Counted from the first letter of the stretch, positions 3,148 through 41,430 are shown. The stretch: DNA of 64,000 nt from Candidatus Woesearchaeota archaeon (GCA_038828875.1 JAWBMQ010000002.1:25314-89313); one strand, 5' to 3'. Notes: generated by a model not told the origin, from the sequence alone. Numbers and translations are program-made.

Positions 3148-3678
3148 ATGGTAAAAAAGGCACAACAATATATTACTTTATTCATTGCAATACTTTTAAT
3201 ATTTTTTTTAATTTTTGGTACAGGAGTAATAATTTCATCATTATCTTTACAAGGAGAAAAAATTACATTATTAATCAATAGTGATTTGGAATCTATTTAT
3301 GCAATAATAGATACACCACTTTATTTATCTTTGAACGATATATCTGATAGTAAGATATATTATAAAGATATTGCTTTAGTAAATTTGCTTAGTGTTTCTT
3401 ATCAAAATAGTATAGATTCTTTACAATATATATTTGAAAAGTATAATTCAACATTTAAGCAAGTTTTCAACGATCTTGTTTGTATAGAGCAATATGAATT
3501 AGATTCAGATGGAAAAAAATCAAATATTGTAATGTATAATGAATGTAAAAAATCAAAAGATTCAGTTTTATTGACTTTTGGCAAGTATAATTTTAAGATA
3601 TCAATCCAGAAAGAATCCGATCAAAAGTTTATAATGAATGAAGCTTTAGAATATTTGAAAAATGTACAGCAAAATTAA
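3148..3678 (+). CDS. Small pilin-like membrane protein (KKAQ followed by a hydrophobic helix)
   Basis: The N-terminus MVKKAQ/QYITLFIAILLIFFLIFG resembles an archaeal prepilin (class III) signal. It sits immediately upstream of the giant protein gene and overlaps it by 17 bp. Confidence 0.4.
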   Translation: MVKKAQQYITLFIAILLIFFLIFGTGVIISSLSLQGEKITLLINSDLESIYAIIDTPLYLSLNDISDSKIYYKDIALVNLLSVSYQNSIDSLQYIFEKYNSTFKQVFNDLVCIEQYELDSDGKKSNIVMYNECKKSKDSVLLTFGKYNFKISIQKESDQKFIMNEALEYLKNVQQN

Positions 3679-16049: not shown

Positions 16050-16052
16050 AAA

Positions 16053-16934: not shown

Positions 16935-17033
16935 AGATTATTGTTTTGATTGTTGTTTTTTTAAGGATTTCAAATTCAAAGGAAAAAAATATATATTAGT
17001 TTTAATTACTTAAATGTAGTTAAAGGTGATACT

Positions 17034-17822
17034 ATGAGTACATACCTAGCTAAAGAATGGCATGAATTGCAAAAATTGGTAATGTATTTATTGAATCAAG
17101 GTGTTGATTTTAGTGATGAAGAACAGATGAAAAGATTAGGTGAAGTGCGCGAAAGTATATTAGAAATGAGTTTTCGTAATTTAAGACAAAATGATCTCGA
17201 AGAATTAAGAGATATTATAAATTATGTGAAAAACGGAAGCAGAGAATATAATCAAAAAAATAATTTTTATTATAATGATAGTAGAGACAGTGAGAATGTT
17301 TCGAAACAGTTAAGAAAAGAATATATGAGTCATTTTAATGAAAATTCATCAGTAAAAAATATTGATGATTTATTCATGAGTTTTTTAACATGTGAAAGTG
17401 GAAGAGCTAGTAGTAAAGATAATTATAAGCAAGAATATAATCCAAATTACTCAAGATCTGATTCTTATGAAAGGAGATATGATAATCTAAAAAATAATTA
17501 TAATTCAAATACTAATAATAACTTTTCAAAGAATCAATCAAATTTAGATTCACTTTTGGAGGAGTTGCTTTCTCAAGTTCAGAAAGAGTATAGAGGTAAT
17601 AAATCTGTTGATAATAAAAAATCAGACGACAAATATTTAGAACAAAATAAAAATCAAAAAGCATTAGATGCTTCAGAAAAACCAGAACCACTAGAATTCT
17701 ATTGGCCATCTAAGAAGAAGGAAAATAAAGATGATCAGTACATGGACTCTTACACTAGAAGAAAAAAAGAAGAAGAGAAAAGGTACCGTATATTTGATGA
17801 CGATGAAAATCCGTTCTTTTAA
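17034..17822 (+). CDS. Hypothetical low-complexity (N/K/S/Y-rich) protein
   Basis: 262-aa ORF preceded by AGGTGA. Contains Asn-rich tracts. Confidence 0.4.
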   Translation: MSTYLAKEWHELQKLVMYLLNQGVDFSDEEQMKRLGEVRESILEMSFRNLRQNDLEELRDIINYVKNGSREYNQKNNFYYNDSRDSENVSKQLRKEYMSHFNENSSVKNIDDLFMSFLTCESGRASSKDNYKQEYNPNYSRSDSYERRYDNLKNNYNSNTNNNFSKNQSNLDSLLEELLSQVQKEYRGNKSVDNKKSDDKYLEQNKNQKALDASEKPEPLEFYWPSKKKENKDDQYMDSYTRRKKEEEKRYRIFDDDENPFF

Positions 17823-17860
17823 TTATAAGTAGATTGTTTTTTCTTAATTGTTTTCTTTTT

Positions 17861-17884
17861 CTTTCTTTCTTTCTTTCTTTCTTT
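17861..17884. repeat. (CTTT)6 microsatellite within a T-rich intergenic tract (17838-17890); possible terminator region
   Basis: The sequence ctttctttctttctttctttcttt is read directly. Confidence 0.8.
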
Positions 17885-17974
17885 GTTTTTAGATTCTATG
17901 TAAATTTAAAGTTCAAAAAATTTATAAATAAGTATTATTACTTTTAAATAGTAACAAAATATTGAGGTGAAAAA

Positions 17975-18748
17975 ATGCCAGACTCTTTAGAAGAAAAGAT
18001 AAAAAATTTTTCTAATTTAGTTAAATTAGTTGCAATCGATCAGGTGAATTTTGAATTATCATCAAAATTTATGAATGTAATAAATGATATCATTCATAAT
18101 CATCCAAAAGGATATTATTATTTAACTTCAAAATACGGTTCTGTTGAAGAGGCAAAAAGATATAGTGGAATTACTGGAATTGATTTTAGAATTTCAACAT
18201 GGTATTATGATATTAGAAGAACTACAAGAGAAGCAGATCCCTATTTAGATTTTCTTTTAAGGGAAGTTTATGAGCCTTTTAAAAATAACGAGGAAAGATA
18301 TAATATTTATGATTTTTCAAGAAGACATTTAGATAATACAAGTTCATATGATGTACTTATGGAAGATTTATCAGCGATTTGGTATTGTTTTCCCCAGATG
18401 TATGTTGCAGGAAGAGAACTTGTTAATATGTTTATTAATCAAATGAAAAATATTAGTTCATCCAGAAGACAGCTAGAATTATTAGACACATTAATAGAGA
18501 AATATCGTGATTCTTTTCGCCTATTTCAAGAAAGTGCAAAGGAATTAGTTAGAGATTATCAAAACAGTGGTTCTGAACAATTTAAAATCTTGATGAAAAA
18601 TGTAGGTTCAAGATATCAGTTGTTAAAAGATGCAGAAACAAGATTTAGAGAAAAATTGGCAGATTACTTAATGAATGAATATCTCCCAAGTAATTATGGA
18701 TATAGAATTGATGGAAGAAGAATACCTCAGCCATGGGATATCTTTTAG
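17975..18748 (+). CDS. Hypothetical protein
   Basis: 257-aa ORF preceded by GAGGTGA. Confidence 0.5.
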   Translation: MPDSLEEKIKNFSNLVKLVAIDQVNFELSSKFMNVINDIIHNHPKGYYYLTSKYGSVEEAKRYSGITGIDFRISTWYYDIRRTTREADPYLDFLLREVYEPFKNNEERYNIYDFSRRHLDNTSSYDVLMEDLSAIWYCFPQMYVAGRELVNMFINQMKNISSSRRQLELLDTLIEKYRDSFRLFQESAKELVRDYQNSGSEQFKILMKNVGSRYQLLKDAETRFREKLADYLMNEYLPSNYGYRIDGRRIPQPWDIF

Positions 18749-18764
18749 TTAGGGGTGAAAAGTT

Positions 18765-19421
18765 ATGTCAGAAACAATACAAAAAATTGAAGATCATGAA
18801 AATAATGAAAAATCACATTTTATGGAATATAGAAAATATTATTCTATGTTAGAATCAATGGTCGAAAATCAGTTGATAGTGAGTGGTTGGGATTTTGAGA
18901 AAGTGAAGAAGCATATAAATTTTTTATCTCCTTATGATTTATCAGATAGAGTGACAAAAAAATTAGAAGAGTATCATAATTTTGCATCAACTGATGTGCT
19001 AGACCGGCTAAAAAATATTTTTAAGGAAGTCTATGCCAATAATCCTTCAGTACCGTATTCAATACTTTCTTCTTTAAAAAAAGGGTTTGATGCAAGTTAT
19101 GAAAATTTAGATAGATTAAGAAAGAAAAATTTAAAAATCATTTCTTCTACAGAAGCTATTTCTGTAGAAGACTATTATCGAGAGCTTCATAATTTAAAAG
19201 ATTTTTTAGAGTTAGGCATGATTTTCGATATGTTAAATAAATTATTTAGTAAATTATATTCTTTTAATCAAGGTAAAGATACTATTGAGCAAGATTTTTT
19301 TGATGAGTTATTCTTTTTGAATTTAAAAGTTAAGAATTATATGAGAAACAATGCAAATAATGGTTGTCAAAATTGTAACAAAGATGCAGATTTATTAACA
19401 GATTTATATATTAAACTTTAA
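18765..19421 (+). CDS. Hypothetical protein with a C-terminal CQNCNKD motif
   Basis: 218-aa ORF preceded by GGGGTGA. Confidence 0.5.
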   Translation: MSETIQKIEDHENNEKSHFMEYRKYYSMLESMVENQLIVSGWDFEKVKKHINFLSPYDLSDRVTKKLEEYHNFASTDVLDRLKNIFKEVYANNPSVPYSILSSLKKGFDASYENLDRLRKKNLKIISSTEAISVEDYYRELHNLKDFLELGMIFDMLNKLFSKLYSFNQGKDTIEQDFFDELFFLNLKVKNYMRNNANNGCQNCNKDADLLTDLYIKL

Positions 19422-24400: not shown

Positions 24401-24451
24401 AAATATTTTTTGTGCAATAAACTTTATAAATTTTATTTCTTCAACAAGTTT

Positions 24452-24649
24452 ATGGAAATTTACATTGAAAGAACAAATAAAAAGTTTCAAAAGAATGTTG
24501 ATAAAATTAAAGTGATAGATCTACTAAAGGAGTTAAATATAAATTTGGAAGAGGTTTTAGTAACTAAGAATGATGAATTAGTTGATGAAAATGAAATTTT
24601 AGAAAATGATGATAAAGTTAAGATAATTTCAGTTATCTCAGGAGGCTAA
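24452..24649 (+). CDS. ThiS/MoaD/SAMP-like beta-grasp sulfur-carrier protein (65 aa, C-terminal Gly-Gly)
   Basis: MEIYIE...VKIISVISGG followed by stop. Its stop lies 1 bp before the ncsA start. Confidence 0.7.
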   Translation: MEIYIERTNKKFQKNVDKIKVIDLLKELNINLEEVLVTKNDELVDENEILENDDKVKIISVISGG

Positions 24650-24650
24650 T

Positions 24651-25532
24651 ATGAATTGTTTTTGTGGGAAAAAAGCGATAATTAGTGGATATTGTAAAGA
24701 TCATTTTATAGAATATGTAGAAAATAAAGTAAAACAAACGATAGAAAATTTCAATTTATTTACAAAAAACGATAGAATTGTTGTTGCTACTTCAGGAGGT
24801 AAGGATTCTTTAACAGTACTCTATCTTTTGAATAAATTTGGTTATAATGTTGAAGGTCTATTAATAGATGAAGGAATCTCAAATTATAGAGAACACACGA
24901 TTTCAGATTTAAGAAAATTTTCAGAGCAACACAATATAAAATTTAGAATAATTTCTTTCAAAGAGGAATTTAACTATACTCTTGATGAAATAGTAACTAA
25001 AATTAAAGATACTTTACCTTGTACTTTCTGTGGCATCTTTAGAAGACATTTACTTAATAAATATTCTAAGCAATACGATGTTCTTGTTACTGGACATAAT
25101 TTAGATGATGAATCACAAAGTGTGTTAATGAATTTATTAAAGAATCAAATTCCAATTCTTGCAAGAATCGGTCCTGTTGCAGGAATTAAAAGGATGAATT
25201 TTACGAAAAGAGTTAAGCCGTTGTATTTGCTAACTGAAAAAGAGATAAAAGCATACACTATTTTGCTTAATTTTCCGATAACTTATTCAGAATGTCCTTA
25301 TGCTAAATATAGTTATAGGAATCATGTTATTGATTTTATTCATAAGTTCTCAAATTCTAAATCAATAAAGGAAAACATAATTAATTTTCATTTAGAACGA
25401 TTATCAAGATTAAAAGAGAAATATCAAGATACTGAATTAAGATTTTGTAAAATATGTAATGAACCATCAACAAAAGAAATATGCAATTCATGTAAATTGA
25501 TAATGAAAATAACGGGTGAAATGAATGAATAA
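24651..25532 (+). CDS. ncsA: tRNA 2-thiolation PP-loop ATPase (NcsA/TtuA family)
   Basis: PP-loop SGGKDS, an N-terminal CxxC...C..H Zn finger, and a C-terminal CKIC...C..C Zn finger. Confidence 0.8.
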   Translation: MNCFCGKKAIISGYCKDHFIEYVENKVKQTIENFNLFTKNDRIVVATSGGKDSLTVLYLLNKFGYNVEGLLIDEGISNYREHTISDLRKFSEQHNIKFRIISFKEEFNYTLDEIVTKIKDTLPCTFCGIFRRHLLNKYSKQYDVLVTGHNLDDESQSVLMNLLKNQIPILARIGPVAGIKRMNFTKRVKPLYLLTEKEIKAYTILLNFPITYSECPYAKYSYRNHVIDFIHKFSNSKSIKENIINFHLERLSRLKEKYQDTELRFCKICNEPSTKEICNSCKLIMKITGEMNE

Positions 25533-26357: not shown

Positions 26358-27326
26358 ATGGATACGAATAAAGGATTAAAAAAAGCATTAGATAGCGAGT
26401 TTGTAGAAAGTGTGTTGATAAGTGGTAGGTATATGCCTGTAGAAATTATTAAAGAACAGAAGAATGTTTTTACTGTAAAAGATATTTTAAGCTTAATGAA
26501 TGATTTTATTAAAGACTATAATTATATTAAAAATGTTGTAAGCGAGAAAAATTTAGGTTTAAAAATTGAGCAGATTCCTTCTGTAGAAGAAGAATTTGAA
26601 AATTTAAAAAAGTATTATAATAAAATGAATGATGCAATAAAAAGATATTATTCTTCATTCAAAAATCAAGATGTGTCACTGTATGAATCAACAAAGGAGT
26701 TTGAATTTTTATTTGAAAACAAGTATTTGAATCCAAAAAATATAAAAGAAATTGTAGCAAATGATAAGGACATAGAACAATTAATTCAAAGTGACGAATT
26801 TTATGATTCTCAACTTTTTACAGATTTTTATAGATTAAATAAAGCATTTGAACCAAGAATGATTTATTTTACTAGAAACGTTTTTGGTGTTTTGGATGAT
26901 CTTTTGAAAAAACAGCAAGCAGAACTTTTAGAAAGAATCGAATATGAAAAAATTTTAAATGAAATTGTTTTTGTAGACAGAGTTCCAGTGAGAGTTTCTT
27001 TTGAGGAAAATCCTTTGTATTTTGATAGAATAAATGTTGCTTATGTAGAAAGAAAAAGAGATAGAGATGCTATTGAAAAATATCTTGTATTGAAAAATTT
27101 AGAACCTGTTTATGAAAGATTAATTGATAAATATACAAAATTAAAATCAGGGTTTTATGAAATGTTAAATTATCATTATGATGTAGAAAGAAAAATTTTA
27201 AGGAATGACTCTTTAGTAGAAAACCTAAAAGAATCAATTTTGAAGCAAATGATTGCAGAAGAAATAACAAAAAGAGTTAATGAATCTAGTAATATGAAGT
27301 ATGGTAGTAAGTATACTCTCTTTTAA
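26358..27326 (+). CDS. Hypothetical acidic helical protein (block ORF 1)
   Basis: 322-aa ORF preceded by GAGGTG. No motifs. Confidence 0.5.
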   Translation: MDTNKGLKKALDSEFVESVLISGRYMPVEIIKEQKNVFTVKDILSLMNDFIKDYNYIKNVVSEKNLGLKIEQIPSVEEEFENLKKYYNKMNDAIKRYYSSFKNQDVSLYESTKEFEFLFENKYLNPKNIKEIVANDKDIEQLIQSDEFYDSQLFTDFYRLNKAFEPRMIYFTRNVFGVLDDLLKKQQAELLERIEYEKILNEIVFVDRVPVRVSFEENPLYFDRINVAYVERKRDRDAIEKYLVLKNLEPVYERLIDKYTKLKSGFYEMLNYHYDVERKILRNDSLVENLKESILKQMIAEEITKRVNESSNMKYGSKYTLF

Positions 27327-27414
27327 TTTTTTTATTTTTTAGATTTTTAGTGCATAAATTTTATATATTTTCTTTTTATTCTACTAAAACAAAATTTCAC
27401 TAAATAGTGATAAT

Positions 27415-28551
27415 ATGACAAAATATGTATCAGATTTAGATTTTGATTTTAGATTGTATCCGGTATTAGTTTATTTTTCTCCTTTAATACTTCCTAAAGA
27501 AGAATATGACAAATTAGGTCTAGAATTTCCAGATTCAGAATATCTAATTAATCAAAAATCATTGAGAAAGTCATTTAAACTTATGAAAAAAGAATTTAAT
27601 AAATCTTTTAAAAAAGATATTTCTGATATTGAAACATTATTTGAGAATTATTATTTTTCACTTAAAAACATAATTAATTTACCTCAAGAAATGTTATCTT
27701 TGTTAGGATATATTTATTATAAAGAGGAAGTGGAGCCAATAATTGAAGAACGAATGAAACGCTTTAATGAAAAAGTTGAATCTTATGTTTTTGATTATGA
27801 ACTATTGTCTAGAAAAAAAAGAAATGATGATTCTTTGGAGTTTATTGTTGATGAAACTAATCTAATGGAATTTATTGCATTATCAACTGATTTAAGTTTT
27901 CAAGAATTTTATTTAAATTTTTCAGAAAATGATGAAGAATCAAATTATTATTTAGCTTATTATTTGGAAGAAGAAAAAAATAAAAAAATCAAAGATATTC
28001 TTAAATATGATAACCTTGCTTATAGTTATCTTAAAAGAAAATATTTTGAATTAGCCAATATTTTAGATAAAATTGATGATGATTTCAATAAATTATATGA
28101 AAGAATGCTTTTCCTTTACAATGAGGGAGTTTCTTCTCTTAACAAAATAATGAAATTATTGCCATCTGCAGATCCTGATGCTAAAAAAATATTGAAAAAT
28201 CAATATAGTCATTTAGTTAAAATAATAGCAATAGAAGATGTTTTTTTAAAAAATTTAGAGGATAATTATTTTTCAATACAGATTAATAAAAATTATTTAA
28301 ATTCAGTCTATAATAAAATTAGATTGAATGATGATGTTTATTCAGAAATAAGTTCTTTTTTTCAATATCAAGGTTTAGCGATGTATATGTATGATTTAAT
28401 TGTTGAGTTAAATAAGAAACTTAGATGGGGAGAGAGGGATTTGAACCCTCGACACCACGGTCTTCAGCCGTGTGCTCTCCCAGCTGAGCTATCTCCCCAA
28501 AAATCTATTATTGATGATAAGCAATCATTTATAAATTTTTCGAAGAGGTGA
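27415..28551 (+). CDS. Hypothetical protein (block ORF 2); the 3' ~40 codons are the antisense translation of tRNA-Phe, so the true 3' end is uncertain
   Basis: ORF with no in-frame stop until 28551. The C-terminus ...GERDLNPRHHGLQPCALPAELSPQ is the tRNA read in antisense. Confidence 0.4.
   Translation: MTKYVSDLDFDFRLYPVLVYFSPLILPKEEYDKLGLEFPDSEYLINQKSLRKSFKLMKKEFNKSFKKDISDIETLFENYYFSLKNIINLPQEMLSLLGYIYYKEEVEPIIEERMKRFNEKVESYVFDYELLSRKKRNDDSLEFIVDETNLMEFIALSTDLSFQEFYLNFSENDEESNYYLAYYLEEEKNKKIKDILKYDNLAYSYLKRKYFELANILDKIDDDFNKLYERMLFLYNEGVSSLNKIMKLLPSADPDAKKILKNQYSHLVKIIAIEDVFLKNLEDNYFSIQINKNYLNSVYNKIRLNDDVYSEISSFFQYQGLAMYMYDLIVELNKKLRWGERDLNPRHHGLQPCALPAELSPQKSIIDDKQSFINFSKR
28426..28498 (-). 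tRNA. tRNA-Phe: tRNA-Phe (anticodon GAA), 73 nt, no intron, CCA not encoded
   Basis: Minus-strand sequence GGGGAGAtaGCTCagctgggaGAGCaCACGGctGAAgaCCGTGgtgtcGAGGGttcaaatCCCTCTCTCCCCa. It folds into a canonical cloverleaf with a 7-bp acceptor stem, D arm, 5-bp anticodon stem, GAA anticodon and T-psi-C arm GTTCAAATC. Confidence 0.9.
28528..28535 (-). promoter_or_regulatory. Putative TATA box (TTTATAAA), with a BRE-like CGAAAAA, about 30 nt upstream of the tRNA-Phe 5' end
   Basis: The minus-strand context is cgaaaaatttataaatgattgcttatcatcaataatagattttt|GGGG. Confidence 0.35.
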
Positions 28552-28556
28552 AATAG

Positions 28557-29255
28557 ATGCAAACATTAGAAGAAAAATTAGTTAGTGATGGAGTTAAGTT
28601 GTTTAAGGTAATGTATCCTTTGAATGTGTATTTAACTAGATTAACAGAAATAGTAGAAAAAAATGATTTGAAAAAAGATGAAACTTTGATGAAGTTGATA
28701 TATGGATTAAATGATGCTATAGAAAGATATGATAAGACGGTAATTGATTTCTGGAAGTTATATGCTGCAAGTTCTGAACTTTACAAAAAATATTATTCTC
28801 AAGATAAAGAGCTCGATAATGTTGAAAATTATTATAAAAAAGATTTAATTCAATTGGTAACAGGTGCGAAGTCAAAAGATTTGCCAAAAGTTATAATGTT
28901 CTTAAAAAAGGAGTTAGATTTTAAAGATGTGCCTGATTTGTATTCAATTTTGAAAAGGGATAAACTTGCATATCACGTTAACAATGCGTACATTTATTTC
29001 ATTGATATATTTGAAAAAGTACATAAAATTTACTCACATTTTGAAAAAAAGAAAAAAGATTATCTTTACCTGCCTTTAGTAAAGTTAGAAAATTCAATAT
29101 ATTCAATTTTAGGAAATGATAAGAATGATTTAAATCCTGAAGTTTTGAATTATTGTACTGAAATTGGATTAAAAATGCATTTAATTTCTCATGTTTTAGA
29201 TCTAGAAATTTATAAAAAATTCGAAGAAAAAAAGAAAAATTATATTAAAAAATAA
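28557..29255 (+). CDS. Hypothetical acidic helical protein (block ORF 3)
   Basis: ORF preceded by GAGGTGA. Confidence 0.5.
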   Translation: MQTLEEKLVSDGVKLFKVMYPLNVYLTRLTEIVEKNDLKKDETLMKLIYGLNDAIERYDKTVIDFWKLYAASSELYKKYYSQDKELDNVENYYKKDLIQLVTGAKSKDLPKVIMFLKKELDFKDVPDLYSILKRDKLAYHVNNAYIYFIDIFEKVHKIYSHFEKKKKDYLYLPLVKLENSIYSILGNDKNDLNPEVLNYCTEIGLKMHLISHVLDLEIYKKFEEKKKNYIKK

Positions 29256-29267
29256 TGCGGTGAAAAC

Positions 29268-30008
29268 ATGGACGAAAAAGAATTATCAAAAATTGTTGTT
29301 GCAATAAGTAATCTTTATAATGATACAAACAATAATTTGTACAAATATAATGAATTATTTTTTGATACTTTTTTTGAACATTTTAGAGAATATTATCGTG
29401 AGTTCATTGAAAATTATAAATCAATAACTGATGCATTAGAAATGATGAATGAGGATTATAAGAATTTAATGTTCAATTCAGTAAAAATCTTTCCAGAGTA
29501 TAGACATATGTTTGAATCAACCAAAAATTTTCAAAATTTGAAATCACTTTACAATTCAAATTCTTTAGAAGAGTTAATTATAAATAATCCTTTGGAAGAT
29601 GTTGTTGTTTTCTTTAGAGATGAATTAAATTTTAAAGAGAACTTTGATATTGAAAATAAGCACAAAGTTATGGATATTTTGTATTCTTTCCTTTCTGATT
29701 TTGAAGTAGTATATTATAGAATTCTTAAAACTGAAAAATGGATTAATCATTTAACATCCAATGGAACTTACATTTCAAGAAAATACTTGGATATTTCATC
29801 ATTTTTTGGAGAATGGCTTTATGAGGTTTATTCTTTCGATAAGAAAATTTCAGAAAAATTGAAGCAATATGAAGAAAATAGTTTAACTTATTTTGAAGAC
29901 AAAAGCGAATATTTGAAACTTTGGTTGAGAAATTATTTGTTAGCAAACGTTGACAATTATAAGGATCTGTTTTTATCTAAAAAAGAAAATATTATTACTA
30001 AAAAGTGA
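29268..30008 (+). CDS. Hypothetical protein (block ORF 4)
   Basis: ORF preceded by GGTGA. Confidence 0.5.
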   Translation: MDEKELSKIVVAISNLYNDTNNNLYKYNELFFDTFFEHFREYYREFIENYKSITDALEMMNEDYKNLMFNSVKIFPEYRHMFESTKNFQNLKSLYNSNSLEELIINNPLEDVVVFFRDELNFKENFDIENKHKVMDILYSFLSDFEVVYYRILKTEKWINHLTSNGTYISRKYLDISSFFGEWLYEVYSFDKKISEKLKQYEENSLTYFEDKSEYLKLWLRNYLLANVDNYKDLFLSKKENIITKK

Positions 30009-30062
30009 TTTCAAATTAACAAATTTTATAAATGGTTCTTTTTTTGGTAGTTTGGTGATATT

Positions 30063-30575
30063 ATGAGAGCTAATCTAGATGATTTTTTCAAGATGGACAA
30101 TTATAAAATTAGAGCTGAAATCAAGCAGTTAGATGCTGAAGTTTTGGTTTCTGCAAAATTATCAAAAAGTTTAGAAGATACAATTTCAAATTACAAAGAA
30201 GAATTATCTTATGATGTAAGATTAAGCTATGAAAAATTTCAGAAAAATGCCAAAAATTTGTTGAGTTATTGGTATAACTATAATACACAGAATGGAAATG
30301 GTAGAATTACATTGAGTGAATATTTATCTTCATTAAGGGCAAAACTTAATTCATTGTCTATTGATTTGTACGAATTAGAGCTTTCAATTTACGAAACTTT
30401 CAAAAAGCAAAAAAATGAAATATATGAATCTATAATTAGCACTATACATTCATCATTTAATTGGGAATATTTAGCTAAGAAAAATGATAAATATCTTGAA
30501 AGAGTTAAAAATGAGGTGCTTGATTTTTACTATCCACCTTTAAATGATGAGGATCTTTCAAATGATGTATATTGA
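30063..30575 (+). CDS. Hypothetical protein (block ORF 5)
   Basis: ORF preceded by GGTGATA. Confidence 0.5.
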   Translation: MRANLDDFFKMDNYKIRAEIKQLDAEVLVSAKLSKSLEDTISNYKEELSYDVRLSYEKFQKNAKNLLSYWYNYNTQNGNGRITLSEYLSSLRAKLNSLSIDLYELELSIYETFKKQKNEIYESIISTIHSSFNWEYLAKKNDKYLERVKNEVLDFYYPPLNDEDLSNDVY

Positions 30576-30637
30576 AAATAGATTTTTAAATAACAAAATT
30601 TATAAATTATGTAATACTACTACTAAATGGTGATACA

Positions 30638-31114
30638 ATGAATATAGAAAACCTACTTAGAAAATATGCAGTTGCTAATGCATACAAAAATACAATAGAA
30701 AAGTACAATGAAATTTTTGATAAAGAATACTACAAGGTAAGAAACGAAGATGAATTTTCTGATGAAGTTAACTACGTTAATTTGAAAAAGAAGACCTTAG
30801 AATTAGCAATGAAAAATTTAGAGATGGGAAGTGAATTAATACAAGTTAAAGTAAGTAAAGTAAAAAATTATCTTAACAAGAATATTGACGAGCAAAAGTT
30901 GAAAACTTCTGAAGAATATTTCGATAATTTTATGGATAATTTGATTACAAATTGCTTAGTTATGGATGAATTGAGAAGTTTAGTAGAAGGAAGATATTTA
31001 AATAATAGATCGCAATTAAACAGAGAAACATTAGACTCTATTGAGAATCTTTCAAATACAGTTAAAGAATACAGGAAAATAATAAAATCATTAATGGCAA
31101 TTGATGTTAATTAA
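30638..31114 (+). CDS. Hypothetical protein (block ORF 6)
   Basis: ORF preceded by GGTGATA. Confidence 0.5.
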   Translation: MNIENLLRKYAVANAYKNTIEKYNEIFDKEYYKVRNEDEFSDEVNYVNLKKKTLELAMKNLEMGSELIQVKVSKVKNYLNKNIDEQKLKTSEEYFDNFMDNLITNCLVMDELRSLVEGRYLNNRSQLNRETLDSIENLSNTVKEYRKIIKSLMAIDVN

Positions 31115-31148
31115 TTTGTTTATTTTTTATATTTTTTGAGGTGGGATA

Positions 31149-31505
31149 ATGAATTATAAAAATTTAGAAGATAAATTAGAGTTTCAAAATTTTAGATATT
31201 ATTCAGAAGTAATCAAAAAGAATCTAAATATTAAAGGATATTTTGACATCCTTAGGAATTGTTATTATGATGATTCAAATATAAGAAAATATTATTATTC
31301 ACTTGTTGAGGAATATCAAAGAAGTCCTAAAAAAAATAAAGATTTAGATTTAAAAATTTTTGAGTTATACAAATCAATGAATTATCTAACAAATTCAAAA
31401 AATAAAAAATCAGACATTTTAAACTACAACGAAGAAATACAAAAGTTTGCTATTGAATATTTAACTATAAAAAAACAAATTGAAAATGATAGACGACAAA
31501 ATTGA
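31149..31505 (+). CDS. Hypothetical protein (block ORF 7)
   Basis: ORF preceded by GAGGTGGGATA. Confidence 0.45.
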   Translation: MNYKNLEDKLEFQNFRYYSEVIKKNLNIKGYFDILRNCYYDDSNIRKYYYSLVEEYQRSPKKNKDLDLKIFELYKSMNYLTNSKNKKSDILNYNEEIQKFAIEYLTIKKQIENDRRQN

Positions 31506-31932
31506 TCAGCTTTATGATGAATTTTATGCAAAGATGGGAGAATTTTTTAATAGTGAAGAAATTACAGATTCTTTAGTAATTTTGCTTTCAAGAAAAAAAG
31601 TTTTGGAAAATTATATTAACAAAGTAATTGATCAAGTTAATTATATCCGACATAAAAATGAAAATTTTTATTATGATGTTTTAGATGATTTATCAAAATT
31701 AACTATTAGTAAAATGTGGAAAGTTCTTAATAATAAACCATCTGAACAGCAATCACTTGAAGAATATGAGAAAAATATTCTAGAATATCATAAAGAAGTA
31801 ATAGATTGTGCTAACGATTTAATATATTTGAAAAAGTTGATTGATTATTATACTCTTTATGATCTTTTTTGTGCTCCATATTATTTAGAAGAAGCAAAAA
31901 AATTTTCTAAACAAATTATTAAGGAGGTATAA
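31480..31932 (+). CDS. Hypothetical protein (block ORF 8)
   Basis: ORF overlapping the previous gene by 26 bp. Confidence 0.45.
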   Translation: MKMIDDKIDQLYDEFYAKMGEFFNSEEITDSLVILLSRKKVLENYINKVIDQVNYIRHKNENFYYDVLDDLSKLTISKMWKVLNNKPSEQQSLEEYEKNILEYHKEVIDCANDLIYLKKLIDYYTLYDLFCAPYYLEEAKKFSKQIIKEV

Positions 31933-31934
31933 AA

Positions 31935-32456
31935 ATGACTCTTCCTACAAGTATAGAAAAGATAATTAATGAGTATTATACTATTATAAATGCATTTCAT
32001 TCGAAGTACTTTAAAAATGAAAATTATAACTACACAAACAAATTTGCAGCATATAAGAAAATTTTTGAAAGTAATGAAGAAATATTAGATTATTTTTCTC
32101 AAAAAATTTCAGAAGATGCTAAAAAAAATATTAAACAATATAAAAAATTGCTGAATCTTTTTGATGAATTTAGGAAAGAATATTCTAAGTTTTGCAAAGA
32201 AAAGAAAAAAGTTGAAATAATATATCATAATAATAAAGAGTACAATTTAGAAGAATATTTCTATGATTTAGATAAAATTGCTTTAGAGATGTTAAAAGAT
32301 AGCAATGTTGAAGATGTTGGAAAAACGTTAAATGAGTTTTTGAAAAAGCGAATTGATTATATTGCAAAAGGTTATCAATTATCTATAATGTATTTGAATT
32401 TAATGGATGAATGTTCAAAAGTTTATGAAGATGGTGGATTGTATGACTCTCGATAA
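31935..32456 (+). CDS. Hypothetical protein (block ORF 9)
   Basis: ORF preceded by GGAGGT. Begins 3 bp after the previous stop. Confidence 0.5.
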   Translation: MTLPTSIEKIINEYYTIINAFHSKYFKNENYNYTNKFAAYKKIFESNEEILDYFSQKISEDAKKNIKQYKKLLNLFDEFRKEYSKFCKEKKKVEIIYHNNKEYNLEEYFYDLDKIALEMLKDSNVEDVGKTLNEFLKKRIDYIAKGYQLSIMYLNLMDECSKVYEDGGLYDSR

Positions 32457-32973
32457 AAAATTAAATGAACTTTATAAGAATTTGAAAGATAAATGGAAAC
32501 AGTTTGAAGAGTGGGAAAATCAGATTAGATCAAAATATCTTGAAAAATGGAAAAGTAAAGATATTGAAGATATCTATCAATTTATTAAATATCCTATGAG
32601 TTATGAGTTAATGAACCTTATTTTAGAGAAAGAATCAAAATATTATAAATTAAACGTAAAAACAAATAATGAGTATGATCAATTGTTTAATAAATTTTTA
32701 GAACTAAAAGATAAGAAATTTAAAAAGGATTATGTTAAATTTAATGGAACAACAATCTATTCTCTGGAAGATTTATTTTATATAACAAGAAATTCAACGG
32801 ATTTACCTTTTGTTTTTTTAGAAACTTCTTATTCTTTAGGTCTAAATGAAACTTCAACTATGAATATTTTTGAAAATTATTTAGAAGATTTAAAAAGTTA
32901 TTATCAATCTCTTTATGAATTCATAGATATGTTAACAAATTACATTGTAAAAAGAGGTGATAAAAATGAATAA
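32407..32973 (+). CDS. Hypothetical protein (block ORF 10)
   Basis: ORF overlapping the previous gene. A later start, e.g. MTLDKK at ~32443, is possible. Confidence 0.45.
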   Translation: MNVQKFMKMVDCMTLDKKLNELYKNLKDKWKQFEEWENQIRSKYLEKWKSKDIEDIYQFIKYPMSYELMNLILEKESKYYKLNVKTNNEYDQLFNKFLELKDKKFKKDYVKFNGTTIYSLEDLFYITRNSTDLPFVFLETSYSLGLNETSTMNIFENYLEDLKSYYQSLYEFIDMLTNYIVKRGDKNE

Positions 32974-33550
32974 TTTAGAAAAAATTACATCAATGTCTTA
33001 TCCTGAGTACAAAATGATAGAAGATAGGTGGAAGAAACATTTAGATTATATTGCTTCAAGAATCAATATGTTGTATAGTTCAATTGGCAATAAAACATTA
33101 ATAGATAAATTTTTGAATTATTATCAGCAAAGCAATGGAAATCTATATAATAAATTAAACGATCTTTTTTCTCAATATAATATAATGCTAAGCTATTCCT
33201 CAAATTCTAAAGTAAATGCAATTATTCAAGAGATAACTCAAGAAATACAAATTTATGAAAATCTAAAAAATAAGTTAGAGGAAATAACTTTTTCTCCAGA
33301 GAAAAGGTATAATTTTAGCGATATGATAAAAAAATATATTCAAGAGAACAACATAAAGAATTTTAATTTAGTAAAAGATTTTCCAAAATTGTTTTTTTGG
33401 ATCTCTAGGAAGAATAACCTAAATACTCAAGAGATAAAAGTAGGTTTAGACACATATATTTTGAAAAGAGAACAAATGTATTACAGTTTATTTAATTTAG
33501 TTGAGCTTTCTATAGATTTAGTAAAACAAGTATCCAGTAATAAAAAATAA
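32957..33550 (+). CDS. Hypothetical protein (block ORF 11)
   Basis: ORF preceded by AGAGGTGA. Confidence 0.5.
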   Translation: MIKMNNLEKITSMSYPEYKMIEDRWKKHLDYIASRINMLYSSIGNKTLIDKFLNYYQQSNGNLYNKLNDLFSQYNIMLSYSSNSKVNAIIQEITQEIQIYENLKNKLEEITFSPEKRYNFSDMIKKYIQENNIKNFNLVKDFPKLFFWISRKNNLNTQEIKVGLDTYILKREQMYYSLFNLVELSIDLVKQVSSNKK

Positions 33551-33599
33551 TAGATTTTGAAATCATAATATTTTTTAATTCTTTTTTGATATTTTATAA

Positions 33600-34133
33600 T
33601 TGGTGATACAGATGAAAGTTGGAAAAAATATTGAAAAAAAATTAGATGAATTATCTTTTAAAAGGTTAAGTATGGAATATTATAGAGCTTTAGAATTGTT
33701 ATATTCAAATTATATTTCATATAGATTTAGAGAACACATTGAAAATGAGAATATAAAAAATTACTATAATTTTGAGAAAGAAATTTCAAAGAAAGTGAAT
33801 CAAGAGCTAAAGCCTGTTCATGATATGTTTAATTACGTCAAAAAATCAATATTCGAATATCTTGATAATCCAGAAAACTTTAAAGATCCTGTTGTTTTTA
33901 AGTATTATGTTAAATCTTTGGTCAATCAGTTTGAAAAGACAAATTCTTTTTTTGAAAAACATGTTATGCCATATCTTTGTCAAAAACTAGAAAATAGAAA
34001 AGCAAATATAGTTAGTTATGATAAAGCAAATAAAAAGATATACTTTTTCTATACTAATCGGTATGAAGAGATGAACAATCTTTACAAAACAATGCAAATG
34101 ATCACAGAAAAGCTGAAAAAAGCCATTTCTTAA
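33600..34133 (+). CDS. Hypothetical protein (block ORF 12)
   Basis: ORF preceded by GGTGATA. Confidence 0.5.
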   Translation: MVIQMKVGKNIEKKLDELSFKRLSMEYYRALELLYSNYISYRFREHIENENIKNYYNFEKEISKKVNQELKPVHDMFNYVKKSIFEYLDNPENFKDPVVFKYYVKSLVNQFEKTNSFFEKHVMPYLCQKLENRKANIVSYDKANKKIYFFYTNRYEEMNNLYKTMQMITEKLKKAIS

Positions 34134-34187
34134 TCTTTTTTATTTTTTTAAGTTTTCTTTAAAATTTTAAAAAATTTTATAAATGAT

Positions 34188-34760
34188 TTGTATTTATCAT
34201 ACAGTGATAAAATGTCTTTGGATTTCAATATTGAAAAATATTATGAACATTTGTTGGAAGAAGTAAGAGATAGTTTAGTTTCTTTAGGTTGGGATAAGCA
34301 GTTTGTTGATGAACATATTCAAGAGTTAAATAAATATAATAGATATTCTTTATCAGAAGAAACCGATTTAGAATTGAGAAGATATAAAAATTTAATACAT
34401 AAAATTTATTTAGGAATGCCTTATAGATTGAAAGAATATTTTTTAGAAAGATCTGAATATGTTTCTTTAGATGTAAATAAAATCTTAGAACTTTTTGATG
34501 AAACTTATGATAAATTAATAGAATTTAGAAATAAAAAAAGAAATTCAGAATTAAAAGATTATGTTGATCAAGAAAGTAAATTTTTAACTGAACTAGTTCA
34601 CTATGGTTTAGGTATTGAAAATATAGAATCTATTTTTGAGATTATTTATTCTGATGAAGATCATCTTGATGAAAATACGATTTATGAAAAAAATCAAGCG
34701 GCAATAAGTTATATAAAAGATTTTTATTTTCCTGAATTAATTTTGAAAAAAGATGATTAA
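34188..34760 (+). CDS. Hypothetical protein (block ORF 13)
   Basis: ORF. Confidence 0.45.
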   Translation: MYLSYSDKMSLDFNIEKYYEHLLEEVRDSLVSLGWDKQFVDEHIQELNKYNRYSLSEETDLELRRYKNLIHKIYLGMPYRLKEYFLERSEYVSLDVNKILELFDETYDKLIEFRNKKRNSELKDYVDQESKFLTELVHYGLGIENIESIFEIIYSDEDHLDENTIYEKNQAAISYIKDFYFPELILKKDD

Positions 34761-34762
34761 AT

Positions 34763-36007
34763 ATGGATTCATACGAATATAACCTTTTGAAAAGAGAGCG
34801 AAATTTAGTAGATCTTTTTGAAAAAAATTCACATTTCCTTTTTTATGAAAATTTAAGAAAAAATTTTTCATATGCTGATGCTGATAAACTTTATGCAATT
34901 ATCGTTACTAAAATATCTTCTTTAGATTATTCTCTTCTTTTAGAGCTTAAAGCAGGAATAGAAGATAAGATTAATGATTATTACAACAATAGACAAATCT
35001 ATTCTTCAAAAATTTTTGATGAGTTAGAAGAACGATTGATTAAAGAAGCAAAACCATTCCTTGATAAAATTAGAAATGAATATAATTTATTTTATAACAT
35101 AGTATTATCTAATTTAAATCATCTCAAAGATCATGAGGCTTTTGCAGAAGCATTAATAAATATGACTTTAGCTGAAATTATCACCTTAGATTTAACATAT
35201 AAAGAAATTTCATCTATGGAAATGAATTATGCGTATTTAAAATATGATGAAATTAAGAACAAAATTTTAAAAAACAAAGAAAAAAGAATTTACATTCAAC
35301 CTGAGTTTGATGCAATTTTAAATGCATCATTATCAATTTCTGATAAAGATTTTATGCGATATTTACCTAGTTTTTTTGATCATTATAAATATGTTTTTGG
35401 TTTTGTATTAAGCAAAAATTCCTTTGAAAATTTAAAAAATTCAATTCAGGATTATAAAAATTCTATGGATAGAATTTGTTTTGATTTTCTAGAAGAAATT
35501 TCTAAGAAGAACATTTATTTTTTACCGACTACTTTCGAATTGAGATATAAGACGTTAGTTCCAGAAATGGAAATTTATGTTAATGAAAGTTATTATAAGA
35601 AATTGATGGTACAGCTTGATGTTTCTTATTTTTCAATGGAATATCAGAATTATATCTTAGAAAAATTTCAAAAGATAAAATCTTTTAATCTAGAAATTTT
35701 AGAAGATAATAAACTAAATGCTTCTTCTTTATTTCAAAACTTAGAAACATTAATTAAAGACCCCATGAAGTCAGAATCCCTCTTTTTAGAACCTATCTTA
35801 AAGATAATTCAAGATGCAATGTTAAACAATTCGAATTATTCAAATATATTCTTTAAAGAATTGAAAAATCAATATTTGAAAATAGCATTTTATGGAAATC
35901 TTATTGAATCTCTTGATTTAATTCAGGATTACTTTAATTATAGTAATAAGTTAGAAAAATTCAATGATTTTTTAAATTATTTAGACAATAAATGTAATCT
36001 AAGATGA
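34763..36007 (+). CDS. Hypothetical protein (block ORF 14, 414 aa)
   Basis: ORF beginning 3 bp after the previous stop. Confidence 0.5.
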   Translation: MDSYEYNLLKRERNLVDLFEKNSHFLFYENLRKNFSYADADKLYAIIVTKISSLDYSLLLELKAGIEDKINDYYNNRQIYSSKIFDELEERLIKEAKPFLDKIRNEYNLFYNIVLSNLNHLKDHEAFAEALINMTLAEIITLDLTYKEISSMEMNYAYLKYDEIKNKILKNKEKRIYIQPEFDAILNASLSISDKDFMRYLPSFFDHYKYVFGFVLSKNSFENLKNSIQDYKNSMDRICFDFLEEISKKNIYFLPTTFELRYKTLVPEMEIYVNESYYKKLMVQLDVSYFSMEYQNYILEKFQKIKSFNLEILEDNKLNASSLFQNLETLIKDPMKSESLFLEPILKIIQDAMLNNSNYSNIFFKELKNQYLKIAFYGNLIESLDLIQDYFNYSNKLEKFNDFLNYLDNKCNLR

Positions 36008-36543
36008 CATTTGACTTAGAAAGAAAACTCAATCAATATTTTTTGGAATATAAGGAAAAGTTGTTTAATCAAGGCATTCCTGAAAAATTCATAAATTATT
36101 ATACGGATTATTTTTTTAACAAAATTGATAAGTTAGTTTTTATCTATGAAAGTGCAGAGAAAAAATTAGATTCGATTTATTTTCTCTTAAACGAAATTTT
36201 TGTAGATGATAAAAAGATAGATGACATTCTTTTTTCTTGTGATCCTTTCCTTTCAGAGTATTATTTTAGCATAGATCTTTTGATGACTTCTCTTGAACAA
36301 ATAACATCAACAAATGAAATAAATTTCAAAGAAATTAAATCAGAATTGAGAAATTATTATAAAGCAGTTACTACTTTTATAAAATGCGCATATTATTTTG
36401 ATAAAATTTATTATGTGATAAGTGATGCAACTTTATTTTTAGATAAAAGCTTTCAAAATAATGAAAAAAAGATGTACAACTACATTAGATACAATATTTC
36501 TTTGTTAAAAGAGCAATATCATAGCAAAAAATTTAAAAACTAA
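36004..36543 (+). CDS. Hypothetical protein (block ORF 15)
   Basis: ATGA start/stop overlap with the previous gene. Confidence 0.5.
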   Translation: MTFDLERKLNQYFLEYKEKLFNQGIPEKFINYYTDYFFNKIDKLVFIYESAEKKLDSIYFLLNEIFVDDKKIDDILFSCDPFLSEYYFSIDLLMTSLEQITSTNEINFKEIKSELRNYYKAVTTFIKCAYYFDKIYYVISDATLFLDKSFQNNEKKMYNYIRYNISLLKEQYHSKKFKN

Positions 36544-36561
36544 AAAATAATAAATAGTTTT

Positions 36562-37185
36562 ATGGCATCTAAAACATTAAAGATCTTTATTGGTGTAGCT
36601 GGATTATTTACTGGAATTTCTTTGCTTTTTCCTCAAACCTACACAGGAAATTTTGTCAATCAAAATCCATCTTTTAGTATTTTTTCTTATTTAATGATTT
36701 TAGCATCATTTTTGTTGATTCTTGTTGCATCATCAGAATCAGAGACTTCAGAAAAGAAAGAAACTCTTGAAAATATAGTTGATGAATCTATTGATCCTGA
36801 TTTAGAAAAGTATTATTCTTTAGCAAAAAAAATATCAGAAAGCTATGAAAAAGCAATAGTACCTAAATATGATAAAGAACAAATAAAGGTAGATCTCTTT
36901 AATCTTATGAAAGGAAATATTTTATATTATGAAGAGAATAAAGAGAAGATGAAAAGGATTTTGGATTATTTATCAGCTAACAAAGATAAAGAATTGGCAG
37001 AATTAGTAAAAACAAAGATTGATTTCTTACAGAAAGAATTAGAATATATGATCAATTACATTGATGATTTTGAATATTCTTTAGATAAGGATAAAAAAGA
37101 GATGAACATAAAAAGTAAGAGAGAAGAGTTGCTGAAAGAGTTGAATGAATATTATAAAAAAGTAAAAAGCAAGTTGCAATATTAA
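36562..37185 (+). CDS. Hypothetical membrane protein (two N-terminal TM helices plus a coiled-coil tail; block ORF 16)
   Basis: N-terminal segments IFIGVAGLFTGISLLF and FSYLMILASFLLILVA, followed by a K/E-rich heptad-like tail. Confidence 0.5.
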   Translation: MASKTLKIFIGVAGLFTGISLLFPQTYTGNFVNQNPSFSIFSYLMILASFLLILVASSESETSEKKETLENIVDESIDPDLEKYYSLAKKISESYEKAIVPKYDKEQIKVDLFNLMKGNILYYEENKEKMKRILDYLSANKDKELAELVKTKIDFLQKELEYMINYIDDFEYSLDKDKKEMNIKSKREELLKELNEYYKKVKSKLQY

Positions 37186-37557: not shown

Positions 37558-37641
37558 TTTTAAATATTTTTTGAATTTTCTGGTAGTTTAACTATCTTTA
37601 AATGAATATATTTATAAAATTCCTTTGGCATTTTTAAAAAA

Positions 37642-38574
37642 ATGAAAAATCCTTTTGATGTTAAATCCTTGGATGAATTGGTTTTAATGTTTAGAGATTA
37701 CAAAAATTATGATATTAGAACCTATGAAACAGAGAAATATAGTTATCAAATAAGTGATTATGATTACCTAATCATATCTAAGAAGGATTTCAAATCAAAG
37801 CATATTTACTTTGACTATTATTTTGTTCTTCTGGATCAACTTTATCAGAATTTTATGCTAGAAATAAATGATAATGAATTTTATCTTTCTTATAACAATC
37901 AAAAAATAAGACTTGCAAAACCTAATCAAGTTATCAATGGCTTGTTTTGTTTCTTAGACGATTCTGTTTTAGATATTTTTGTTGAAGACAATGAGTATAT
38001 GAATTCCTTGTACAAAAATTTAACAAATTTGATTTCGTCAGTTAAAAAAGTGAGTGTTTTTGATCAGATAGATAAAACCATTTTTTTAAAATCTTCAACA
38101 AAGAAGAATTTGATAAACGTATTAGATGAACTTTTTGTGCTTAGACAAGTAACTAAAAAAGTATCAATTTTATTGACTTATGATGTTGTTGATGAAAAAT
38201 TTTTAAGCATAAAATATGCAATTGATAATAAAGACAATGATAAATTTTATGTGCCTTTGGATTTTTACATAAAAGAAGGTAAAGGAATTTGTAAGCAATT
38301 TTCTTTACTTTATGGTTATTTTTTAGAAAAATTGATTCAAGAGAAATATCTTCCAGGATCTTTTGCAATAGATTTAAATTATCGTGATTTCAACGATTTG
38401 CCTAGTGGAGGCCATATGTGGGTAAGATATACTTCAGAAGCAGGAAATGTTTTTATTTTAGATAATAACCATATTATTGAATTGTTTTCTTCAAAAGAAA
38501 ATAAAAGTAATGCATATTATAAAAGACCTTACGAATTTGAGGAATATGTTAAGAAAAAAATAAAGAATGTTTAA
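37642..38574 (+). CDS. Transglutaminase-like / papain-fold cysteine protease superfamily protein, paralog 1
   Basis: Candidate Cys-His-Asp triad: GKGICKQFSLLYGYFLE, ~50 aa later GGHMWVRY, ~15 aa later FILDN. No signal peptide. Confidence 0.55.
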   Translation: MKNPFDVKSLDELVLMFRDYKNYDIRTYETEKYSYQISDYDYLIISKKDFKSKHIYFDYYFVLLDQLYQNFMLEINDNEFYLSYNNQKIRLAKPNQVINGLFCFLDDSVLDIFVEDNEYMNSLYKNLTNLISSVKKVSVFDQIDKTIFLKSSTKKNLINVLDELFVLRQVTKKVSILLTYDVVDEKFLSIKYAIDNKDNDKFYVPLDFYIKEGKGICKQFSLLYGYFLEKLIQEKYLPGSFAIDLNYRDFNDLPSGGHMWVRYTSEAGNVFILDNNHIIELFSSKENKSNAYYKRPYEFEEYVKKKIKNV

Positions 38575-38622
38575 CCACTACAAGATAGTAAAATTTATAA
38601 GGAAATTTATTTTTCTTTTTTT

Positions 38623-39585
38623 ATGGATAAATTGTTCAAAGCTAAAAGTTATGAAGAGTTGGAAGATTTAATTTATGAATATCTTGATCACGATCATAGA
38701 TGCTATCAGGATTTTAAAAGATATTATGAGATAAGCGATTATGATTACCATATTACGTTTTTAAATGATTCTAAAAGGTTTGTTGAGGTTTCTTTTTCAT
38801 ATTTTTACAATTTGTTTGATCATCTTTTGATAAATCAATTGATAAAAGTAAAAGATAATGAATTTATTCTTCAAGATTGTGATCTTAAGTTGGTTAAAGA
38901 GGATTCAGTTATCAATAGGTTGTTTTATCTATATCAGATTCAAGAACCTGCACACATTTATATTGAGGACAACGATTACATGAATAAAATCTATAATTCT
39001 TTGAAAGAAAGAATTTCTAAATCAAAAGAAAAATCAGTACTTCAAGAGATTGACAAAACAATTCATCTTAAAGAGCAAACGAAGAACAATTTAGAAGATC
39101 TTTTAATTCATGAACTGAATATTCTCAATAATGTTAGATTAACAGTATTGGAACATTTAAGATATGATTATTTTAAAGAAAATCAAATTGCAAAAATCAA
39201 ATCAAAAAATAGAAAAATTATTGTTGAAAAACCTTATGTGTTGTTAGATGAATTTATAAGAGAAAGAATTGGAGTTTGTAAGCAATTTTCTTTGTTCTAT
39301 GGTTACTTAATTGAAAAATTAATACAAGATAATATTCTTTTTGGAAACTATTGTTTGGATTCTAACTTAGTTTATTCCTCAGAAAAACCACCTTCAAGTC
39401 ATATTTGGGTAAGATATAAAACCATAACAGGTTCAACATTCATACTTGATCAAGAATATATTTTGGAATTAAATTCAAAAGTCGAAAACAAGATGACTAT
39501 TTTTTATAAAAGACCTAAGGAGTTCGAAAGACACATTGTTGGCTTGTTAAATGCAAAATTAATGGTAATAAACAAAAAAGCTTAA
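38623..39585 (+). CDS. Transglutaminase-like cysteine protease superfamily protein, paralog 2
   Basis: GVCKQFSLFYGYLIE ... SHIWVRY ... FILDQ. Shares the N-terminal ISDYDYHI motif with paralogs 1 and 3. Confidence 0.55.
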   Translation: MDKLFKAKSYEELEDLIYEYLDHDHRCYQDFKRYYEISDYDYHITFLNDSKRFVEVSFSYFYNLFDHLLINQLIKVKDNEFILQDCDLKLVKEDSVINRLFYLYQIQEPAHIYIEDNDYMNKIYNSLKERISKSKEKSVLQEIDKTIHLKEQTKNNLEDLLIHELNILNNVRLTVLEHLRYDYFKENQIAKIKSKNRKIIVEKPYVLLDEFIRERIGVCKQFSLFYGYLIEKLIQDNILFGNYCLDSNLVYSSEKPPSSHIWVRYKTITGSTFILDQEYILELNSKVENKMTIFYKRPKEFERHIVGLLNAKLMVINKKA

Positions 39586-39599
39586 TAAAATTAACTACC

Positions 39600-41422: not shown

Positions 41423-41430
41423 CTTTTCAC

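Follow-up and report, generated by a model that had tools for sequence, protein, structure and literature searches.

The closest described counterparts of the locus analyzed here are selB genes that contain a tRNA gene. Mukai (2021) reported that selC can lie inside the selB ORF and presented this as the first case of an entire tRNA within a bacterial protein-coding region (PMC8124441). In Shewanella and some Ferrimonas selC is reversed, and the tail of selB is the translated complement of tRNA-Sec, which runs from a Trp codon (UGG) to a Pro codon (CCN); the selC promoter is located near the selB stop codon (PMC8124441). The same report cites two further situations (PMC8124441). In Alphaproteobacteria selB harbors tRNA-Sec on the sense strand, and in animal mitochondria tRNA genes are integrated within protein genes, as is tRNA-Lys within cox1 of Armadillidium.

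A similar arrangement occurs in a DPANN archaeon, the Candidatus Woesearchaeota MAG GCA_038830485.1 (~24% GC). The window, i.e. the whole 64-kb stretch of DNA that was analyzed, harbors a tRNA-Phe(GAA) gene on the minus strand (28426..28498) within the 3' end of an ORF on the plus strand (27415..28551, referred to as ORF 27415). Like the reversed selB/selC pair, this locus combines an entire tRNA that is contained in opposite orientation in the 3' end of an ORF, an extension that begins with W338 (UGG) and reaches P361 (CCN) at the tRNA 5' end, and a tRNA promoter near the ORF stop codon (BRE/TATA at 28528-28542, stop at 28549). In both cases the two transcripts would be mutually cis-antisense. 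The Trp codon of selB complements the encoded CCA, whereas that of ORF 27415 complements C71-C72-A73. The genes themselves differ as well. The selB/selC pair is bacterial, is conserved across species and joins tRNA-Sec with its dedicated elongation factor, which constitutes a functional link, and it was this conservation and this link that made the selB case convincing. The present case is archaeal and involves an elongator tRNA-Phe and an orphan host ORF seen in one lineage only. In the direct-orientation cases, as far as they are cited in that report, a whole tRNA also lies in an ORF whose stop is near or overlaps the next start, and the mitochondrial examples share a compact genome with the present case. 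The tRNA of Alphaproteobacteria selB and Armadillidium cox1 is, however, in direct orientation, so that tRNA processing would cut the mRNA, whereas here it is antisense. As the geometry is the same as in reversed selB/selC, the locus is counted as an archaeal, elongator-tRNA case of that kind. The short list of nested tRNAs, for which the first bacterial report dates only from 2021 (PMC8124441), would grow by an archaeal member with an ordinary elongator tRNA, and the nesting would show the extent of gene packing in DPANN genomes.

The tRNA-Phe(GAA) gene and its putative transcription unit

The sole tRNA detected by ARAGORN in the 64-kb window is tRNA-Phe(gaa) at 28424..28499 on the minus strand. 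Rfam model RF00005, which has a gathering score of 29, matched positions 28498..28426 over its full length with 70 bits (E 3e-13). Both programs bear out the canonical 73-nt minus-strand tRNA-Phe(GAA) that was proposed in the initial annotation. The gene is intron-free and is found without encoded CCA. Identity and modification of tRNA-Phe depend on G20, G34-A35-A36, G37 and A73. The sequence, GGGGAGAUAGCUCAGCUGGGAGAGCACACGGCUGAAGACCGUGGUGUCGAGGGUUCAAAUCCCUCUCUCCCCA, contains G20, G37 and A73 as well as the anticodon GAA (G34-A35-A36), and its acceptor stem, GGGGAGA, is unusual. The GC content of the tRNA gene is 60%, compared to a window average of ~24-29%. Judged by its appearance, the gene would be functional and is probably the working copy of the cell.

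A candidate promoter was recognized from the sequence and from the spacing of TATA boxes elsewhere in the window. The TATA box, TTTATAAA (28528..28535, no strand assigned), is a perfect palindrome. Its start lies upstream of both genes, at a distance of 37 nt from the tRNA 5' end and of 29 nt from the ATG at 28557. Directly upstream of TTTATAAA on the tRNA strand lies a BRE-like element, CGAAAAA (28536..28542, minus). Due to this position the promoter would point toward the tRNA, and the BRE thus favours the tRNA direction of the palindromic TATA box. Motifs of the GAAAAATTTATAAAT type also occur upstream of plus-strand genes, oriented in the direction of transcription, at 2563, 17915, 30593, 34170, 46312 and 51602. 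The BRE/TATA 15-mer was found 13 times in the window, compared to 9 +/- 3 times in shuffled sequences. Since this is no enrichment, the argument for promoter orientation is based on the location of the copies and not on their number. A scan for sigma-70 promoters and hairpin terminators was also carried out, but is uninformative for an archaeon.

In those genes of the window that lack a Shine-Dalgarno (SD) sequence and are presumably leaderless, the distance from the start of the TATA box to the ATG is 30-33 nt. Applied to the TATA box at 28535, this spacing places the start of tRNA transcription at about 28504 (A), which would result in a pre-tRNA 5' leader of 6 nt, AUUUUU (28499..28504, minus). 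At the other end of the gene a putative oligo-T terminator, TTTCTTATTT (28410..28419, minus), begins 7 nt past A73, and archaeal RNA polymerase is known to terminate at T tracts. On the plus strand the tract forms the codons AAT AAG AAA of ORF 27415. An archaeal promoter comprises a BRE and a TATA box ~25-30 nt ahead of the transcription start, and by these motif matches the tRNA-Phe gene has its own putative archaeal BRE/TATA promoter and T-tract terminator. The whole tRNA unit, from terminator to BRE (~28410-28542), is contained in the last 47 codons of ORF 27415.

Coding signal of ORF 27415 upstream of the tRNA and across it

ORF 27415 starts with an ATG, encodes 378 aa and is free of in-frame stop codons between 27415 and 28549. 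The earlier statement that it remains open until past the tRNA was confirmed by the ORF listing, the translation and a frame check. A TATA-like sequence, TTTATATA (27360..27367, plus), is positioned 55 nt upstream of the ATG and likely represents the ORF's own promoter; a weak SD (GTGA) is located at -8. The body of the protein (residues 1-337, 27415..28425) is rich in K, E, N and Y and is predicted to be all-alpha. Codon 338 (TGG) begins exactly at 28426, and the translation ends with ...LNKKLR-WGERDLNPRHHGLQPCALPAELSP-QKSIIDDKQSFINFSKR*. Codons 338-361, WGERDLNPRHHGLQPCALPAELSP (28426..28497, plus), are antisense to tRNA nt 73 to 2, and a predicted tryptic peptide of the tRNA-antisense part is HHGLQPCALPAELSPQK. 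Codons 362-378, QKSIIDDKQSFINFSKR, together with the stop codon TGA at 28549-28551, occupy 28498..28551 (plus), and these 17 codons are complementary to the stretch from tRNA nt 1 through the leader to the TATA box and the BRE. The description of the last ~40 codons as tRNA antisense is thus accurate for W338-P361, i.e. for 24 of the 41 codons, but not for Q362-R378, which mirror leader and promoter. Only one of the three antisense frames of the tRNA, that of ORF 27415, is open. The remaining two plus-strand frames are stop-rich and contain one stop each inside the tRNA (at 28442 and 28485).

The coding potential was assessed with a codon log-odds score for which the genes of the window with Pfam support served as training set. 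The ORF body scored +0.55 in frame, versus -0.70 and -0.92 in the other frames. In the frame of the ORF the score was still +0.38 for positions 28300-28422, but +0.07 for the tRNA antisense and -0.06 for the tail of codons 362-378; the next ORF (28557) reached +0.50. The coding signal of ORF 27415 therefore falls to about 0 exactly at the start of the tRNA. The body is a real gene that reaches the tRNA boundary without having its own stop codon, and no selection is apparent in the 41 overlapping codons. These values support the 3' extension of the ORF that had been put forward in the initial annotation, where it was suggested that such an extension could have arisen through loss of a stop codon. 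Stop-to-stop runs in the window have a median length of 6 codons, and 0.13% of them reach 378 codons. A single-sequence AF2 model of the protein, which was used for secondary-structure trends only because of its low confidence (pLDDT 44.5), is helical except for residues 341-360, which form coil. When the 49-nt tail was shuffled at the same base composition, it was stop-free in frame 16% of the time. With one of three antisense frames of the tRNA open and a probability of 0.16 for the tail, a read-through is not improbable, given that no earlier stop is present.

The protein has no recognizable family in Pfam or PHROG. A 5.8-billion word-index search returned only its own partial copy, and a full HMMER scan of 1.84 billion representative proteins returned only the protein itself. 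The exact tRNA-Phe sequence and two degenerate patterns derived from it were absent from the GTDB representative genomes and the JGI metagenomes, and the tRNA-Phe pattern was absent from IMG/VR. The closest relative, found via DTD2, is GCA_038825875.1 (58% aa identity, 65-74% nt identity). It keeps the upstream gene order from an AP-endonuclease-like gene to DTD2, but its contig breaks off within DTD2, ~2 kb before the position of the tRNA would be reached. The next DTD2 relative shows 48% identity and is not syntenic. At the DTD2 loci of these two relatives no tRNA was found, the contig of GCA_038825875.1 ending inside DTD2. In the window, the neighbours of the tRNA locus are archaeal housekeeping genes. 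They encode ProRS of the archaeal type, a ThiS-like protein together with a PP-loop ATPase, DTD2, NifU, the SUF system, a GTPase of the NOG1 type, RadA, an S-layer protein and a rubrerythrin. The locus is part of a chromosome with housekeeping neighbours and is not an obvious mobile element.

Origin of the overlap

The nesting of tRNA-Phe in ORF 27415 is most likely incidental in origin. A convergent overlap without purpose in a compact, very AT-rich DPANN chromosome is given a probability of about 0.6. According to this reading ORF 27415 is a lineage-specific gene with its own promoter and no in-frame stop before the tRNA. The tRNA, with its 60% GC, is a stop-codon desert in which one of three antisense frames happens to be open. 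The frame of a gene without its own stop consequently runs through the tRNA and its promoter, and the first available stop is the TGA that lies, by chance, inside the SD of the next gene. If a plus-strand transcript reaches this TGA, the protein would carry a 41-residue tail unshaped by selection, with 24 of the 41 residues dictated by the sequence of the tRNA. Both strands would then be transcribed and the tail would be translated, and the arrangement would serve no regulatory purpose. As ORF 27415 is an orphan, with no orthologue as a reference for an ancestral stop, the term incidental is based on codon statistics, which here cover 41 codons only.

The transition to the next gene is equally tight. 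The next orphan ORF (28557..29255, plus, 232 aa) is preceded by the SD GAGGTGA (28545..28551, plus), and genes of the window repeatedly use GGTGA at -8 to -12 as SD. The stop codon TGA of ORF 27415 sits within this SD, 5 nt before the ATG at 28557. The promoter elements of the tRNA had been reported to overlap the same SD, but the TATA box (28528-28535) and the BRE (28536-28542) adjoin it without sharing positions. The TATA box at -29 is the sole TATA of ORF 28557, and a promoter whose transcript contains its SD would not fit in. An SD without such a promoter suggests that transcripts cross the tRNA in antisense. For ORF 28557 two routes of expression are conceivable, namely translational coupling to ORF 27415 if transcription reads through from there, or a leaderless mRNA that is made from the shared TATA box.

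Three observations on this region were counted against the incidental reading. A stop codon inside an SD, 5 nt before an ATG, is also the geometry of translational coupling. The locus resembles the conserved selB/selC arrangement, for which a function has been proposed. The SD of ORF 28557 suggests that antisense transcripts across the tRNA are real.

A functional antisense nesting, in which transcriptional interference or an mRNA:tRNA duplex couples the expression of the orphan genes to tRNA-Phe transcription, is unlikely. Plus-strand RNA from ORF 27415, and perhaps from the entire downstream array, would cross the tRNA head-on and carry 73 complementary nucleotides. The SD of ORF 28557, being usable only on transcripts that start upstream of the tRNA, is consistent with this idea, as is the position of the ORF 27415 stop within it. 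The palindromic TATA box might in addition drive a leaderless ORF 28557 in the opposite direction, since its distance of -29 from the ATG is close to the -30 to -33 of leaderless genes, although the BRE favours the tRNA direction only. Folding prediction for the plus-strand RNA over the tRNA yielded a stable mirror cloverleaf (-38.7 kcal/mol, z -3.6), and a precedent exists in the reversed tRNA-Sec of the selB tail with its promoter near the selB stop (PMC8124441). However, the ORF is an orphan without demonstrable conservation, the codon usage of its tail is neutral, and no functional link is known between the protein and Phe decoding; Pfam, PHROG and homologue searches revealed no functional tie between ORF 27415 and tRNA-Phe. 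A stronger form of this idea would make the locus the first archaeal antisense nesting in a translated ORF, and the first known for an elongator tRNA in a prokaryotic chromosome, that is in actual use, with anti-tRNA-Phe transcripts folding into mirror cloverleafs and the shared palindromic TATA box coupling the orphan block to tRNA-Phe transcription. It is regarded as quite doubtful.

It is distinctly improbable that the true stop is masked by an error in sequencing or assembly, or that ORF 27415 is not a gene at all. Homopolymer-rich sequence of 24% GC is prone to error, the ORF has no homologue, and PGAP annotated no more than a partial CDS of 208 aa in the MAG, leaving the tRNA free of any CDS. 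This partial protein, deposited at NCBI for Candidatus Woesearchaeota archaeon MAG GCA_038830485.1, corresponds to the N-terminal 208 aa of ORF 27415. What truncates it is a 10-N scaffold gap within the ORF (near 28037) and not a stop codon. Window, NCBI MAG and Logan assembly all show the same sequence here. MAG contig JAWBLI010000010.1 agrees with the window across the tRNA junction, and the Logan assembly of SRR27730013 encodes exactly the full 378-aa protein, its contig differing from the window by 3 mismatches in 14.3 kb and by none in 27415-28560. An assembly artefact is therefore unlikely, although the assemblies may share reads. ORFs that gene callers place over GC-rich RNA genes are a common artefact in AT-rich genomes. 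ORF 27415 resembles such cases in that the overlapping part has no coding signal and is open where the RNA gene has no stops. In contrast to these short spurious ORFs it is long, with a strong and frame-specific signal (+0.55) across 337 codons, and its open run of 378 codons belongs to the top 0.13% of stop-to-stop runs.

The tRNA had also been suggested to mark the boundary of an old element. Archaeal proviruses and plasmids integrate at tRNAs, which are classical integration targets, and integration of the SSV type splits the integrase into int(N) and int(C), which overlap the tRNA gene. At the present locus the tRNA would be the boundary or attachment site of a provirus, plasmid or SSV-type integration and the tail a by-product of the insertion. 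The locus resembles SSV-type integration in that an ORF overlaps an archaeal tRNA gene beside a run of unannotatable genes. This block comprises 16 co-directional ORFs at 26358-37185 (11 kb), between DTD2 and NifU, and has a slightly lower GC content (0.22-0.24 versus 0.26-0.29). None of its ORFs reaches the curated Pfam cut-off for any family, PHROGs gave no match for the ten of them that were scanned, and all-against-all BLASTP detected no paralogues within the block. Several assemblies break here, namely the MAG at ~28037, the contig of Logan SRR27730014 at ~27969 and the contig of the relative in DTD2. However, orphan ORFs flank the tRNA on both sides, which places it inside the block and not at its edge. 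When the 64-kb window (28 kb upstream and 35 kb downstream of the tRNA) was searched with a 12-mer index and blastn-short, no stretch of the tRNA body exceeding 12 nt recurred as a direct repeat. Each of two half-tRNA patterns, in which as many as 3 mismatches were allowed, had a single match in the window, and a repeat finder returned nothing relevant to the tRNA. A 12-mer at 55456 shows no flanking similarity and was rejected as a chance match. No integrase or recombinase was detected by Pfam in ~60 of the 69 window ORFs of at least 80 aa, and no int(N) or int(C) fragments were present near the tRNA among the ORFs scanned with Pfam and PHROGs. Within this scope the locus differs from SSV-type integration by the absence of integrase similarity, of a tRNA direct repeat and of a second border. 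IMG/VR contained no relatives of ORF 27415 or ORF 34763, and phage records compared with 7.9 kb of the block gave only generic tRNA similarity and one 43-nt match, to a hypothetical gene of a Streptococcus phage. Without repeat, recombinase, viral similarity or edge position, an integration boundary is highly improbable and was rejected as far as the window allows.

The locus thus provides no pointer to a mobile element and, unless expression says otherwise, no new mechanism. It does call for caution in annotation. At ~24% GC, GC-rich RNA genes contain few stop codons, so that a real gene can gain a tail dictated by a tRNA, and pipelines that forbid the overlap of CDS and tRNA will truncate or drop such genes.

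The orphan-ORF block between DTD2 and NifU

The region between DTD2 and NifU (26358-37185) contains 16 ORFs of 118-414 amino acids, which are all located on the plus strand and are rich in K, E, N and Y. The GC content of the block (0.22-0.24) is slightly below that of its flanks. In Pfam, none of the 16 ORFs scored above the curated cut-off of any family, BLASTP detected no paralogues among them, and no PHROG match was found in the ten that were scanned. The ORF harboring the antisense tRNA-Phe(GAA) gene within its 3' end (27415..28551, plus strand, 378 amino acids) had no homologue in 1.84 billion representative proteins.

Independent assemblies are interrupted inside or shortly before the region at ~27969 and ~28037. 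A contig of the Logan assembly SRR27730014 ends at ~27969, and the NCBI MAG GCA_038830485.1 carries a 10-N gap at ~28037 as well as a contig end near 29420. L003, the contig of the syntenic relative GCA_038825875.1, ends inside DTD2 at the equivalent of ~26142. Strain variation or low-complexity A/T runs may have caused these breaks.

Gene starts and TATA boxes

The gene starts in the whole window fall into two classes. In about 16 genes lacking an SD sequence, a box of the TTTATA(A/T)A type begins 30-35 nt upstream of the ATG, a spacing that suggests leaderless genes. SD-bearing genes contain GGTGA at -8 to -12, and their TATA box is positioned either between -52 and -64 or at -38/-39. Besides the palindromic box that is a shared-promoter candidate of the tRNA-Phe gene and ORF 28557, a second palindromic TTTATAAA is positioned at 37611-37618, 31 nt upstream of the ATG at 37642. 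The 84-nt intergenic region that holds this box separates the divergently oriented NifU (minus strand) and ORF 37642 (plus strand), and the box may represent another shared or bidirectional TATA box.

Gene clusters and paralogues outside the block

A small ThiS/SAMP-like ORF, to which the gene calls of both Logan and NCBI assign 65 amino acids, is located immediately 5' of a PP-loop ATPase gene (ThiI / tRNA methyltransferase HUP-like; 24410-25532 for the cluster), and the latter overlaps the start of DTD2. Together these genes, ~2-4 kb from the tRNA-Phe gene, look like a small operon for tRNA-thiolation and tRNA-proofreading.

Five plus-strand genes at 15174-19421, including one for a radical SAM protein, are missing from GCA_038825875.1, where the homologue of ORF 19426 comes immediately after the AP-endonuclease-like gene (L003 2174-2239). 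This difference is an indel of ~4.3 kb between relatives.

A giant ORF of 2649 amino acids (3662-11611) had no match in Pfam. The 815-amino-acid ORF upstream of it (14-2461) is weakly similar to the giant ORF (23% over 635 amino acids, E 2e-9).

Three tandem paralogues (37642-40592) share 39-41% identity, and their similarity to transglutaminase-like proteins (DUF553) is weak. Next come, on the opposite strand, two tandem metallophosphoesterase paralogues with 47% identity (40580-42339).
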